In this document: positions 28,603-50,916 of the stretch, in pieces | How the letters are laid out: each line of letters begins with the position of its first letter | Position numbering within the stretch: position 1 is the stretch's first letter | DNA from: Spirochaetota bacterium | Lineage (GTDB): Bacteria > Spirochaetota > GWE2-31-10 | DNA: 61,344 bases | NCBI GenBank assembly: GCA_045133795.1 | Contig: JBGUUT010000100.1 | Coordinates: 1 to 61,344, forward strand | Direction of reading: 5' to 3' | The notes under the pieces: model-generated | Databases searched by the model: none | What the model saw: the letters and a program-made list of their open reading frames with translations, nothing else | Told to the model about the DNA's origin: nothing | Position numbers and translations under genes: made by a program

Positions 28603-29808
28603 ATGAAAAGTAAGTTTATTCGTATATTATTAATATCTATAATGGCGGTGTTTGTTTTTTCATGTAAAAATCAAGCTCAAAAAAGTCAGCGTGATAAAGC
28701 AAAGTTTATGAAAGATTATCAAGGAAAAAAGATTGTCGGATATTTCCCGGCAAGATACTCATTGGCACAAGATTATGATGCCGGAACACCTTATTTGACG
28801 CATTTATTGTTGTGGTTTTACAATCCGGACGAAGAATATAATTTTTATTGTGATGAAGCTCAAGAACATGAAGTTATGCAACTTATAAAAAAAGCAAAAC
28901 GTGATAATTGCAAGGTTTTTCTTTCAATCGCTGGCGGAGCTGTTCATGCCGGTTCAGAGTATGCAGACCGTTATCGTTATTTGGTTAGTCCGGAAAATCA
29001 CGATTTCTTTGCTCAAAAACTTGTAGAGCTAGCAAAACATTATAATGCGGACGGAATAGATTTGGATCTTGAAGGTTCTATGATTTTACCGGGATTTTCT
29101 GAATTTATTGTTTTGGCAAAAGAAAAGTTGTCTCAGAATAAAATTGAGCTTTCCGGAGCTTTTAATATTTACGGTGGGAAAAAACTGACAGATGAGGCGG
29201 TTCACGCGTTTGATTTTATAAATATTATGGCATATAACGAGTCTGGATTGTTTGAAAAGAAATTGCGTAATCATTCATCTTATTATCATGCACAAAAACA
29301 TTTAAATTATTGGACAGATACGAGAAAAGTTGCTGCTGAAAAAGTTATTCTCGGTGTGCCTTTTTACGGCTGGTATAATGAATTTGATTTAGCCGGAGAA
29401 TTGTTGGAAAAACGTTCTATTTCTTTTTCTTACGTAAACAAACACTTTCATAATTTATCGGAAAAAGATAATCTTGTAGAAATTGAAACTGATACACGAC
29501 GAATAGTTTTTACTTTTAACGGTGTAGATTTGATTGCACAGAAAACACAATTATCTAAAAATTACGGCGGAATAATGATTTGGCATATAGCACAAGATAG
29601 CGACGATTTGAAGCTGTTGCGTACGGTTGCAGATAATTTGCAATATAAACCGGAAAACGTTGAAAATAGCGATGTTTCTGATGATTTGACGGGAATTGAC
29701 GTGACGTCTGATTTACAAGATGTTACGACGGATGTTGAAGTAGAGTTGATTGAGGATAACGGAGAGTTACGCCCTGTAAGAGCAAGTGATTTATTGCCGA
29801 CCAATTAA
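28603..29808 (+). CDS. GH18 chitinase-like lipoprotein
   Basis: Lipobox VFSC, SIAGG, intact DGIDLDLE (DxxDxDxE), NIMAY, GVPFYG, GGIMIW. Start may instead be 28591. Confidence 0.88.
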   Translation: MKSKFIRILLISIMAVFVFSCKNQAQKSQRDKAKFMKDYQGKKIVGYFPARYSLAQDYDAGTPYLTHLLLWFYNPDEEYNFYCDEAQEHEVMQLIKKAKRDNCKVFLSIAGGAVHAGSEYADRYRYLVSPENHDFFAQKLVELAKHYNADGIDLDLEGSMILPGFSEFIVLAKEKLSQNKIELSGAFNIYGGKKLTDEAVHAFDFINIMAYNESGLFEKKLRNHSSYYHAQKHLNYWTDTRKVAAEKVILGVPFYGWYNEFDLAGELLEKRSISFSYVNKHFHNLSEKDNLVEIETDTRRIVFTFNGVDLIAQKTQLSKNYGGIMIWHIAQDSDDLKLLRTVADNLQYKPENVENSDVSDDLTGIDVTSDLQDVTTDVEVELIEDNGELRPVRASDLLPTN

Positions 29809-29871
29809 GATGGTATAAAATTAGCTTATGTGTTTGAAATTATAATAAAAAGCAAATTTTGAGGAGGTTCT

Positions 29872-30282
29872 ATGAAAAGATTTGTTTTGTGTTTATTTAT
29901 GTTTTGCGGTGTTTTTGGACTTTTTGCTGAAATTCGTTATGAGCAAAAAGATAATGAGTTTGAATGTATTATAACGTACAAAAATGACAATTTGAATGCG
30001 GTAAATATCATTGGTTCTATGACTGATGATTGGGCGGAACCCGGTGTGCCAATGGTAAAAAATGCGGACGGTGTTTGGGAGTATCGTTTTAAAATGACTC
30101 GTTCACGAGAGTTTTATAAGTTTTACAATCCTGCAACTGAAGGAGAAACGGCTTACATAGAAGACCCAGAAGCACAGGAAACAATTGACAGTCCTATAGG
30201 CGGAAAAAATGCAGTAGCAAAACGACCGCCTAGAAAAGTAAAAAGAGTAGTTACTGTCGTAGAAGAAGTTGTAGAGGAATAA
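29872..30282 (+). CDS. Secreted protein with a CBM48/E-set (AMPK-beta-like) glycogen-binding domain
   Basis: Signal peptide; V.IIGS...W....PM.K..DGVW...YKF....DP pattern. Confidence 0.7.
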   Translation: MKRFVLCLFMFCGVFGLFAEIRYEQKDNEFECIITYKNDNLNAVNIIGSMTDDWAEPGVPMVKNADGVWEYRFKMTRSREFYKFYNPATEGETAYIEDPEAQETIDSPIGGKNAVAKRPPRKVKRVVTVVEEVVEE

Positions 30283-30306
30283 AAACTCTTTTGTCTTTGT
30301 ACCAAC

Positions 30307-30336
30307 AAAAAAAGAGCAGTCTAACAAGACTGCTCT
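30307..30336 (-). terminator. Intrinsic terminator, minus-strand orientation
   Basis: 10-bp perfect stem; the U-run is only on the minus strand, where no credible CDS ends. Confidence 0.8.
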
Positions 30337-30386
30337 AAGCAATTAAGCTACCGGGTACATAAGGCGGGAGGGGTAAGTACCCGGCA
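30307..30386 (-). ncRNA. Candidate small regulatory RNA with a C-rich anti-SD loop
   Basis: Minus strand: GCCGGGTAC-[TTACCCCTCCCGCCTTAT]-GTACCCGGT, then terminator AGAGCAGTCT-TGTT-AGACTGCTCT-TTTTTT; sigma28-like promoter upstream. Confidence 0.6.
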
Positions 30387-30393
30387 ATAACTA

Positions 30394-30421
30394 TATTCGG
30401 GGAAAATCAAAAAAAACTTTA
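30394..30421 (-). promoter_or_regulatory. sigma28 (FliA/SigD)-like promoter
   Basis: Minus strand TAAAGTTT...CCCGAATA (TAAA-N16-CCCGAATA), versus consensus TAAA-N15-GCCGATAA. Confidence 0.5.
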
Positions 30422-30447
30422 ATGAGCAAAAATTATTTTTTAATAAA

Positions 30448-31518
30448 ATGGGAAAACAGTTTGAAAATCGAAAAATAATACATATTGATATGGATGCTTT
30501 TTATGTGTCGGTAGAGCTGCTTTCTCATCCGGAATTGATAAATAAACCGGTAGCCGTAGGCAGAGCTCAAGATGAACGCGGTGTAATATCGACAGCTAAC
30601 TATGAAGCCAGAAAATACGGTGTTCATTCAGCGTTAAGTGTATCAGAAGCGTACCGATTATGTCCGCATTTGATATTGCTACCTCCTAATTTCAGAAAAT
30701 ATGAAGAAATATCAAAAGATATTTACCAAATGTATTGCCAATATACAGATAAAGTAGAACCGATTGCACTTGACGAATGTTATCTTGATGTTACAGGGAA
30801 AGGTTCTGCGACTTTAATCGCAAAAGAACTTAAATATAAAATTAGAATGAGACATGATTTAACAGCTTCAGCCGGAGTATCGTGTAACAAACTTATTGCA
30901 AAAATTGCGTCGGATTATCGTAAACCGGACGGCTTTTTGTTGGTAAAACCGTGTGATGTTGCAGAATTTATTGCGGATATCGATATAAAAGATATTCAAG
31001 GTGTCGGCAGTGAAACAGCTAAGAAAATAGAAAGTTTAAAACTGGGGAAGACTTGTCGTGATTTACAAAGAATAAGTTTGATTGATATGATTCGATTGTT
31101 TGGAAGTTACGGCGAGAAGCTGTATTATTTTGTCAGAGGAATTGACGAAAGACCGGTTGAAGCTAATCGAGAAATGAAATCTTTGGGGACGGAAGATACG
31201 TTTCCGGAAGATTTGTATATTGAAGATGAAATCTTGGATGAGCTGAAACGACAGATTGAAGAAATTAAACCAAAAGCACAAAGTAAAAAATTGCGTTGGA
31301 AAACAGTTACTTTGAAAGTTAAATACAGAACATTTATTCAAGTTACCCGAAGTAAAACATACACGGATTTTATTGATGATTTTGAGCAAACTTTTGATGA
31401 TATTAAGATTTTACTGAAAGAGGGAAATATTGATATTGAAGCCGGAGTACGTCTTGTAGGGGTAACTATTTCGAATTTTGAGCCTTTGATACATCAATTA
31501 GAACTTATTTTTCCATAA
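30448..31518 (+). CDS. dinB: DNA polymerase IV
   Basis: HIDMDAFYVSVE, ANYEARKYGV, LDECYLD, AKIASDYRKPDG. Confidence 0.96.
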   Translation: MGKQFENRKIIHIDMDAFYVSVELLSHPELINKPVAVGRAQDERGVISTANYEARKYGVHSALSVSEAYRLCPHLILLPPNFRKYEEISKDIYQMYCQYTDKVEPIALDECYLDVTGKGSATLIAKELKYKIRMRHDLTASAGVSCNKLIAKIASDYRKPDGFLLVKPCDVAEFIADIDIKDIQGVGSETAKKIESLKLGKTCRDLQRISLIDMIRLFGSYGEKLYYFVRGIDERPVEANREMKSLGTEDTFPEDLYIEDEILDELKRQIEEIKPKAQSKKLRWKTVTLKVKYRTFIQVTRSKTYTDFIDDFEQTFDDIKILLKEGNIDIEAGVRLVGVTISNFEPLIHQLELIFP

Positions 31519-50681: not shown

Positions 50682-50865
50682 AAATATACATATCAATTTT
50701 ATTTCCGATTCCGGAATTGTTATTGTTTACCACAGTCTGATTAATAACAGCAGAAAGTTGATTAGTTACGTTACTTTTTGCAACAATTGCTTGTGATATG
50801 AATTTATTTAACTGTGCACTCATTTGTGCGATTTGATTGTAAGTTGACATTGTAACAGAATTCAT
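50680..50865 (-). CDS. Small YjfB-like (putative motility-associated) protein
   Basis: Strong SD GGGAGG; 61 aa, helical, C-terminal GIGNKIDMYI like the G..ID... ending of YjfB. Confidence 0.6.
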   Translation of the reverse strand: MNSVTMSTYNQIAQMSAQLNKFISQAIVAKSNVTNQLSAVINQTVVNNNNSGIGNKIDMYI

Positions 50866-50916
50866 TTTTTATTCCTCCCGATTTAAATTTTCGGAAGAAA
50901 TAAAAAAAATAAAATA

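Follow-up and report, generated by a model that had tools for sequence, protein, structure and literature searches.

What, if anything, is encoded in the 165-bp gap between two plus-strand genes of a gut spirochaete? The gap lies on contig JBGUUT010000100.1 of a Spirochaetota bacterium (GTDB lineage GWE2-31-10; GenBank assembly GCA_045133795.1), of which a whole stretch of 61,344 nucleotides (nt), called here the window, has been analysed. An earlier note on this DNA had proposed that the gap holds an undescribed small RNA (sRNA) of the flagellar regulon, and promoter comparison, helix covariation and target enrichment now support that proposal at the level of sequence. The element lies on the minus strand of the gap, between genes of the plus strand, and it is very probably a genuine sRNA gene of sigma-28 type. 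With moderate confidence, its RNA is further proposed to pair at the G-rich ribosome-binding sites (RBSs) of early flagellar genes and thereby to repress these. The anatomy of the element, its conservation and covariation, the class of its promoter (by comparison) and its complementarity to targets, with the enrichment of these, are computed results; transcription, dependence on sigma-28, pairing in vivo and the direction of regulation are what we infer.

Anatomy, promoter and conservation within the genus

The host assembly is a 2.69-Mb draft of 138 contigs, and the GC content of the window is ~32%. The sigma-28-like promoter claimed by the earlier note is present on the minus strand, as TAAAGTTT-N12-CCCGAATA at 30421-30394. 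The sigma-28 consensus reads TAAAGTTT-N11-GCCGATAA; the -35 element of the sRNA promoter matches it at 8/8 positions and the -10 element at 5/8, including the CCGA core, with a spacer of 12 nt. Its class can also be judged by comparison with flagellin promoters, as the earlier note had advised. Among the three flaB genes of the host, one (contig C63) possesses a sigma-28-type promoter, TAAAGATT-N12-CCCGAAAA, located 71 nt upstream of its ATG, and the other two have none. The orthologues of this gene display T(A/T)AAG-N-CCGA(A/T) 62-79 nt upstream of their ATG in 16 of 18 genomes of the order, including a TTAAG variant that is also found at several sRNA promoters. This shared form places the sRNA promoter in the same class as the flagellin promoter of the clade.

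The host also encodes, at the end of its flhA-flhF-flhG cluster, a FliA-type sigma factor of 259 amino acids (aa) with regions 2, 3 and 4. By its position and domain make-up this protein would be FliA, and we infer that the sRNA promoter depends on it. In Treponema denticola, according to a passage of PMC9481697, flaB2 alone has a mapped sigma-28 promoter, with the -10 sequence CCGATAA, and a passage of PMC11607428 reports Borrelia to be without sigma-28. A loose scan of the host genome with TAAA-N15-17-CCGA[AT] returns 308 matches and is too noisy to define a regulon.

Downstream of the promoter, the predicted RNA is composed of two hairpins joined by a single-stranded linker (Table 1). Stem-loop 1 is the GC-rich stem that had been noticed earlier, with an 18-nt loop; its 10-bp stem pairs 30386-30377 (5' arm) with 30358-30349 (3' arm) and includes a G.U pair (30385/30350) that becomes an A-C mismatch on the plus strand. 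The second hairpin is a Rho-independent terminator with its stem-loop at 30336-30313 and its U-tract at 30312-30307. A terminator scan of 29500-31000 yields this single site, on the minus strand, in agreement with the claim that the U-tail points in the same direction as the promoter. The fold of the minus-strand RNA reaches -35.5 kcal/mol (z = -5.9), a value matched by none of 200 shuffles.

The earlier description of a complete unit of ~80 nt without a credible open reading frame (ORF) holds as well: the only AUG frame inside the sRNA has 5 codons, and the conserved block is bounded by promoter and terminator in the sister species. The unit therefore combines the marks of a trans-acting sRNA gene, namely its own promoter, a Rho-independent terminator and no conserved ORF. 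Two listed minus-strand ORFs, 30103-30342 and 30153-30308, are not credible either; both read across the terminator and continue in DNA that is unconserved and lies antisense to the upstream gene.

Conservation within the genus delineates the same unit. In three of the four other species (G001-G003) the element is 93-95% identical, against 78-83% for the surrounding 1.5 kb. In the alignment of the four species, the conserved block starts at the -35 box and stops at the U-tract. Variation falls in the promoter spacer and in the terminator loop, with the two promoter boxes and the terminator stem invariant. The 25 nt that separate the terminator from the stop codon of the upstream gene are unconserved, and in G003 the DNA past the terminator cannot be aligned with the upstream gene found in the other three species. 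A conserved block bounded in this way by promoter and terminator indicates that the element is more than a chance assembly, and its limits, together with invariant boxes around a variable spacer, form the pattern expected of a minus-strand transcription unit.

Table 1. Features of the sRNA locus, its neighbours and one candidate target site, numbered along the window.
Feature	Position	Strand	Basis
Upstream gene, 136 aa, no Pfam match	29872-30282	+	ORF list, Pfam scan
Predicted sRNA, ~80 nt	30307..30388	-	5' end predicted from promoter; fold, identity versus flanks
Rho-independent terminator: 10-bp stem, 4-nt loop, six U	30307..30336	-	Terminator scan; stem conserved, loop varies in genus
Single-stranded linker GCUUAAUUGCUU, 12 nt	30337..30348	-	Invariant within genus, not conserved beyond
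Stem-loop 1: 10-bp stem closing 18-nt loop	30349..30386	-	Fold; helix covariation in 18 homologues
Loop UUACCCCUCCCGCCUUAU, 18 nt	30359..30376	-	Sequence
Loop core CCCCUCCC, proposed seed, anti-Shine-Dalgarno look-alike	30366-30373	-	Sole invariant block in 18 aligned homologues
-10 element CCCGAATA, core CCGA	30394..30401	-	Sequence; conserved in genus
Promoter spacer, 12 nt	30402..30413	-	Varies among 4 species of genus, unlike flanking boxes
-35 element TAAAGTTT of sigma-28-type promoter	30414..30421	-	Sequence; invariant in 4 species of genus
Downstream gene, dinB-type polymerase	30448-31518	+	ORF list, Pfam scan
CGGGAGG RBS of 61-aa YjfB-like gene (ATG at 50865), weak candidate target	50874..50880	-	Sequence

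Homologues, covariation and spread in the phylum

The search for known families and homologues recommended by the earlier note gives no family at gathering score, and homologues in both the order and the phylum. With Rfam 15 at its gathering thresholds, the window returns two transfer RNAs only, and 40 related loci return no match. At loose E-values, the best hits at the locus are MicC (26 bits against a cut-off of 90) and sbrA (22 against 45), resemblances at the level of shape only.

Twenty genomes of the order have been searched. A strict pattern running from promoter to loop recognises sRNAs of the host's kind, termed type A, in 8/20 genomes, and its reversed control in none. A relaxed pattern adds one genome (G008), and a pattern made of the loop only, in which the promoter is not used, adds five more (G005, G006, G009, G012, and G013), for a total of 14/20. 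All five loop-only finds display a -10 box (C/T)CGA(A/T)TT at the expected place, and four of them a -35 box TTAAGTTT or TCAAGTTT, that of G013 being unclear. Since these promoter boxes were not part of the search, they provide a non-circular confirmation that promoter and RNA belong together. In G007, a member of another genus, a weak BLAST match proves to be an sRNA unit located in a different neighbourhood, with the same promoter form and the same loop as in the host (CCCCUCCCGCCUU), attached to an unrelated stem sequence and an unrelated terminator. The surrounding sequence differs also in G010, G011, and G014, and the element is retained there as in G007.

The relaxed pattern reveals a second unit in the host genome (G000), termed type B, at C30:12693-12802 on the plus strand. 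Its promoter reads TAAAGATA-N-ACCGAAGA, its AU-rich hairpin closes the loop CCUCCCAA, and a terminator follows. Three sister species share the unit at 89-94% identity, and its conservation does not go beyond the terminator. Type B is found in 10/20 genomes of the order, and either type in 16/20. In the remaining four (G004, G016, G017, and G018, 72-93% complete), the pattern searches found neither type.

Eighteen type A hairpins were aligned by sequence only, with MAFFT. The block CCCCUCCC is the only invariant one, present in 18/18 copies. RNAalifold places on this alignment a 6-bp helix around the loop, with compensatory changes in all six pairs. The cells of this helix are paired at 80%, against 64.8% after shuffling, and both sides have changed in 28 of them, where 10.4 would be expected; the covariation score amounts to 0.595 (0.329 in shuffled alignments). 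None of these three values is reached by any of 500 shuffles. Kinship between the copies inflates such figures, yet controls in which the helix is slid along the alignment keep the kinship and score far lower, with 29-55% of cells paired. Folding points in the same direction: the C-rich motif is unpaired in the minimum-energy fold of 9/9 copies of the order, and with this motif constrained to stay unpaired, 16 of 21 distinct type A copies fold better than all but at most 4 of 300 shuffles of their flanks, L032, L122, L049, L148, and L151 being the five that fold more weakly. The seed is thus held unpaired by a covarying helix.

Beyond the order, only loci of which the anatomy has been inspected are counted. 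Loci in which a C-rich motif and a 3' GC-rich hairpin come after a sigma-28-like promoter have been recognised in 14 further families of the phylum (f10, f14, f18, f21, f25, f28, f31, f32, f36, f39, f42, f43, f46, and f47). The motif is located in a hairpin loop in most of them and unpaired at the 5' end in f39, and many possess the canonical -10 sequence CCGATAA. Out of 18 such loci, a U-tract is detected automatically in 11, six more display a terminal hairpin with an interrupted U-run, and G179 is ambiguous. A scan of named genomes returned 28 stretches, nine of them titled as spirochaete; the anatomy is present in eight of the nine, some titled Treponema sp. The copy of Treponema berlinense (L049) is ambiguous, as is that of G179 (L323): both have the promoter and the C-run, but the latter pairs with a downstream G-rich stretch. 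Raw pattern counts at the scale of the phylum (99/201 genomes) are uninformative because the reversed control matches about as often.

Other elements have been met in these scans. In L061, from an uncultured bacterium, two tandem hairpin-terminator units with the C-rich runs CCCCCUCCCUCC and CCCCUCCCCCUC lie downstream of TAAAGTTT...CCGAAAT, and their GC-rich stems overlap the promoter spacer; they may represent a related or a convergent tandem sRNA. L045, L047, L048, and L060 (Acidobacteriaceae, Candidatus Acidoferrum, and Candidatus Sulfotelmatobacter) share a common stretch that extends from TGTGGATTTC...GAAATAAAGTTTGC, through CCCGAAACGGGA, to a C-rich run. It looks like a different conserved non-coding element that was matched by accident.

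Predicted targets and rival explanations

Targets have been ranked in the host genome by the duplex energy of the loop with positions -30 to +9 of 2525 genes, called by a simple and crude rule (an ORF preceded by an RBS); 28 of these genes are labelled flagellar. Motility genes are strongly enriched in this ranking, which was one of the checks proposed earlier. First comes fliL, with -27.9 kcal/mol and 11 contiguous complementary bases (GGGAGGGGUAA), followed at ranks 4, 5, 7, 8, and 9 by a fliG-like gene, fliE, fliP, fliN/Y, and flhB, and at ranks 15, 19, 21, and 27 by fliQ, fliF, flgD, and flhA. The top 30 therefore harbors 10 flagellar genes, or 9 if the fliG-like gene is set aside, and the hypergeometric p-value is 1e-13 for the 28 labelled genes and would be 5.5e-10 for an assumed total of 60. 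A 7-mer that pairs with the loop core is present at the RBS of 11/28 flagellar genes and of 20/2497 others (odds ratio 80, p = 2.5e-15).

GGGAGGGG, which complements the loop core, is rare in the host genome, with 17 copies. Merged GGGAGGG and GGAGGGG sites number 66, of which 32 sit 2-12 nt upstream of the start of an ORF of at least 40 aa, and ten of the latter are flagellar by Pfam: FliI, FliF, FliE, FlhA, FliQ, FliN/Y, FliL, FlgD, a second FliG-like protein, and CsrA. When genes are ranked instead by pairing with the ribosomal anti-Shine-Dalgarno (anti-SD) sequence, just one flagellar gene enters the top 30. The host assembly lacks a 16S gene, and the 16S 3' end of a relative from the same family is the ordinary GGAUCACCUCCUUU. 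With a canonical 16S end and a single flagellar gene in the anti-SD ranking, the extra G residues are left unexplained by ribosome binding. For type B, the best matches are fliI (-25.4 kcal/mol, 12 contiguous bases) and then one flaB leader, flhA being fifth.

The YjfB-like gene that the earlier note had singled out is a weaker case. Its CGGGAGG site is indeed complementary to the loop and located 8 nt upstream of the ATG, but as a strong target it does not stand: its duplex of -14.9 kcal/mol ranks 112 of 2525. The 7-mer occurs 32 times in the host genome, and the 61-aa product matches no Pfam family at E <= 0.001.

The FliG-like gene at C115:45799-47136, on the minus strand, encodes a 445-aa protein with an N-terminal extension. 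This gene lies outside the flgB operon, with GGGAGGGG as its RBS; the canonical fliG, inside the operon, has an ordinary one.

Across the order, counting only genomes in which the start could be placed, the G-rich RBS is kept at fliE (16/20), fliF (19/20), fliL (13/18), and fliP (15/20), and in part at fliN/Y (8/17) and fliQ (7/17). It is absent or nearly so at flgB (0/6), flgC (1/16), fliG (0/11), fliH (0/10), motB (0/16), fliM (0/19), fliO (0/9), fliR (1/18), and flhB (0/17), and genes of the two kinds share operons. Complementary sites at RBSs are thus conserved between species, as far as computation can tell. In most genomes of the order, the region upstream of fliE (L099-L120) comprises a short AT-rich gap with TTATATAT that precedes the G-rich RBS; the sequence of this flgC-fliE gap suggests an internal promoter or a processing site.

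The pattern extends to G156, a genome of the distant family f31, in which the sRNA displays the loop GAUUCCCCUCCC. Its GGAGGGGAA sites number 21, against 14 for the reversed control; one is the sRNA gene itself and ten lie at RBS distance. After one 65-aa ORF with a TTG start was dropped, nine genes were scanned, and four of them encode FliF, FliG, FliP, and an FlhF-like GTPase ~5 kb from fliP. Elsewhere in the phylum, results for fliF are mixed: its RBS reads GGGGAGGGG in a 1.1-Mb genome of the size of that of Treponema pallidum, and is ordinary in other lineages named below.

The following mechanism is proposed. The locus would be a stand-alone gene for a trans-acting sRNA of ~80 nt, with a sigma-28 (FliA) promoter and its own terminator, one of a family distributed across the phylum Spirochaetota. 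Stem-loop 1 would present CCCCUCCC, that is, the anti-SD core CCUCC with additional C residues, in an unpaired state. The sRNA would accumulate upon the activation of sigma-28 at a late stage of flagellar assembly, and the loop of the sRNA would pair with the G-rich RBSs (GGGAGGGG and variants) of fliL, fliE, fliF, fliP, fliQ, fliN/Y, flgD, flhA, and flhB, and probably also with that of ftsZ. Pairing would block binding of the 30S subunit and thereby lower translation. Late flagellar genes would in this way feed back negatively on early ones, possibly through type B as well.

Several observations weigh against this reading. The -10 element CCCGAATA differs from the canonical GCCGATAA at three of its eight positions, as the flagellin promoters of the clade likewise do. 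The ranking relies on plain energies that ignore accessibility, and the fliG-like gene and csrA received their flagellar label after the motif had been sighted. The flagellar genes sit in two operons and are hence not independent draws. The loop holds the anti-SD core, so that any strong RBS pairs with it in part, and a PNP_UDP_1 gene, an Imm49 gene, and smc are among the non-flagellar genes that rank high. The fliF RBS is ordinary in f39, a family in which the sRNA is present with its motif unpaired at the 5' end, and in genomes of the size of those of Borrelia, Leptospira, and Brachyspira. Finally, the four genomes of the order that yielded no sRNA (G004, G016, G017, and G018) all retain the G-rich fliF site; either copies have been missed there, or the G-rich sites are independent of the sRNA.

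This last option belongs to the rival that survives best, although it is unlikely in our view: the sRNA gene is real and of sigma-28 type, but early flagellar repression is not its main job, and the flagellar G-rich sites exist for other reasons. It might instead serve ftsZ and other genes of cell division or cell shape, damp messengers with strong RBSs in general, activate its targets, or titrate an RNA-binding protein. The G-rich RBS of ftsZ (contig C36:12364-13617) is complementary to the loop, ranks second of 2525, and is conserved in 12/19 genomes of the order (loci L349-L367), against 1/18 for the adjacent ftsA. Such a site is a hint that flagellar assembly and cell division may be linked. 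Genes for an MraY-like protein, MreB, and Smc are within the top 25, and both the general anti-SD core of the loop and the four genomes mentioned above fit a broader role. What weighs against such a role is the contrast between 10/30 flagellar genes among the top targets and 1/30 by ribosomal anti-SD pairing, the gene-specific distribution of the G-rich sites inside operons and its conservation over four families, and the recurrence of the flagellar link in the distant G156. Among the individual variants, titration of CsrA fits poorly: CsrA sponges carry GGA motifs, and this RNA has none.

Much less probable than another job for a real sRNA is the view that the hairpins belong to a plus-strand transcript, as the 3' untranslated region or terminator of the gene at 29872-30282 or as a dinB leader, and that no minus-strand RNA exists. 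The earlier note had named the first of these as what would overturn its proposal; conservation and strand-specific features oppose it. On the plus strand, 30286-30303 can pair with the loop region's G-rich strand into a long helix of -45.2 kcal/mol (z = -5.7). This helix, 18 bp with many G.U pairs within 30283-30370, has been rejected as specific to the host genome: its left arm (30283-30307) is unconserved even within the genus, and the pattern seen in the four species discounts it. The U-tract lies 3' of the terminator stem on the minus strand only, the G.U pair of stem-loop 1 is lost on the plus strand, and the conserved promoter boxes read in the minus-strand direction. The element also persists where the supposed plus-strand context does not, as in G003 with its unalignable upstream DNA and in the altered surroundings of G007, G010, G011, and G014.

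Metatranscriptome data bear on the same view. Four runs match small shares of the locus: a short piece from X3 lies inside dinB only, and X2 and X4 have none over the locus itself. The only contig from an RNA library, a strand-blind one of 293 nt from a related strain in X1, covers 30116-30377 and extends from the 3' end of the upstream gene into the hairpin. It can be cited for a plus-strand transcript but is ambiguous, since plus-strand read-through or carry-over of DNA would fit it as well as anything else.

A non-functional or selfish repeat, or a chance promoter-like string followed by two hairpins, is the least credible explanation and close to refuted by conservation and covariation. 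AT-rich genomes are indeed rich in TAAA...CCGA strings, as the loose scan of the host illustrates, and the relaxed pattern at phylum scale is nearly equalled by its reversed control, but the element is single copy in the host genome, more conserved than its neighbouring genes, built on a covarying helix around a loop invariant in 18 aligned copies, and found by the strict pattern in genomes of the order where the control finds nothing.

Known systems and significance for spirochaetes

Two further observations on the host genome stand apart from the sRNA. A dispersed repeat starting with TAAAAAAAGTGTAAAGCCATCCCGAA is found in seven near-identical copies, on contigs C16, C22, C29 (two), C36, and C48 (two), and one copy precedes a 174-aa ORF by 83 nt; the repeat possibly marks the end of a mobile or repeat element. 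On the minus strand of contig C4 (22212-25088), a 958-aa ORF combines a GatA-like amidase, an OB-fold, and the core of a class II tRNA synthetase of the aspartyl/asparaginyl type.

The sRNA family predicted here has functional parallels in several bacterial groups. In Firmicutes, RsaE/RoxS are sRNAs with C-rich loops that pair with G-rich leaders, in an unrelated lineage and regulon. In Escherichia coli, the small RNAs known as UhpU, MotR, FliX, and FlgO depend on sigma-28 and, as proposed here, exert post-transcriptional feedback on flagellar synthesis, according to PMC10578931. The latter describes this set as derived from untranslated regions, whereas the spirochaete RNA is stand-alone, with its own promoter and terminator, an anti-SD-like loop, and predicted pairing at RBSs. 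No sequence relationship and no Rfam match connect the two.

In Campylobacter jejuni, sRNAs balance classes of flagellar genes in a manner that resembles the proposed circuit. Excerpts of PMC11187230 describe CJnc170 (FlmR) as FliA-dependent, its overexpression reducing flagellar length and motility, and CJnc230 (FlmE) as RpoN-dependent, processed from the flgE mRNA, and repressing flgM. These sRNAs belong to a different phylum and have no detected homology to the spirochaete RNA, and the excerpts mention neither a C-rich anti-SD loop nor G-rich RBSs of basal-body or export genes (PMC11187230).

A likeness in terms of mechanism is offered by the cuckoo RNAs of alphaproteobacteria, which present the anti-SD motif CCUCCUCCC in their loops (PMC4615179, in extract, as for the statements that follow). 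In these too, compensatory changes dominate the stems, and the number of hairpins varies. The survey in question finds them in alphaproteobacteria only, with 2-4 repeated modules, and its extract does not report them as driven by sigma-28 or as flagellar (PMC4615179). In contrast, the spirochaete RNA carries a single loop with CCCCUCCC or CCCUCCC, and gives no match at Rfam gathering score. The same extract names sX13 of Xanthomonas and RepG of Helicobacter pylori as similar to cuckoo RNAs (PMC4615179). They likewise direct C-rich loop seeds against G-rich sequences at or near RBSs, in unrelated lineages and regulons.

No description of this spirochaete sRNA was found in the published literature, within a search that covered openly accessible papers. 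The mechanism would be of a known kind, and it is the family, its phylum-wide spread, and the proposed regulon that appear undescribed.

Spirochaete flagellar operons are mostly transcribed from housekeeping promoters, and their control is thought to be largely post-transcriptional. On the premise that most spirochaete flagellar genes lack a transcriptional cascade, a wider and more doubtful idea can be put forward tentatively. Types A and B might form a phylum-wide, sigma-28-timed pair of anti-SD sRNAs that constitutes the missing checkpoint of the spirochaete flagellar hierarchy and couples new-pole flagella to division. After completion of the hook-basal bodies and release of sigma-28, translation of the M-ring, of the export gate, of fliL, and of ftsZ would be shut down, through a dedicated G-rich "address" at the RBSs that the sRNAs would recognise.

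The control of flagellar genes in spirochaetes is poorly understood, and the sRNA offers a concrete candidate for a feedback circuit from late to early genes, with a possible link to cell division. If true, spirochaetes, in which very few sRNAs have been characterised, would gain an sRNA family that spans the phylum, and the G-rich RBSs would offer a clear-cut case of an mRNA "address" occurring together with the seed of an sRNA.

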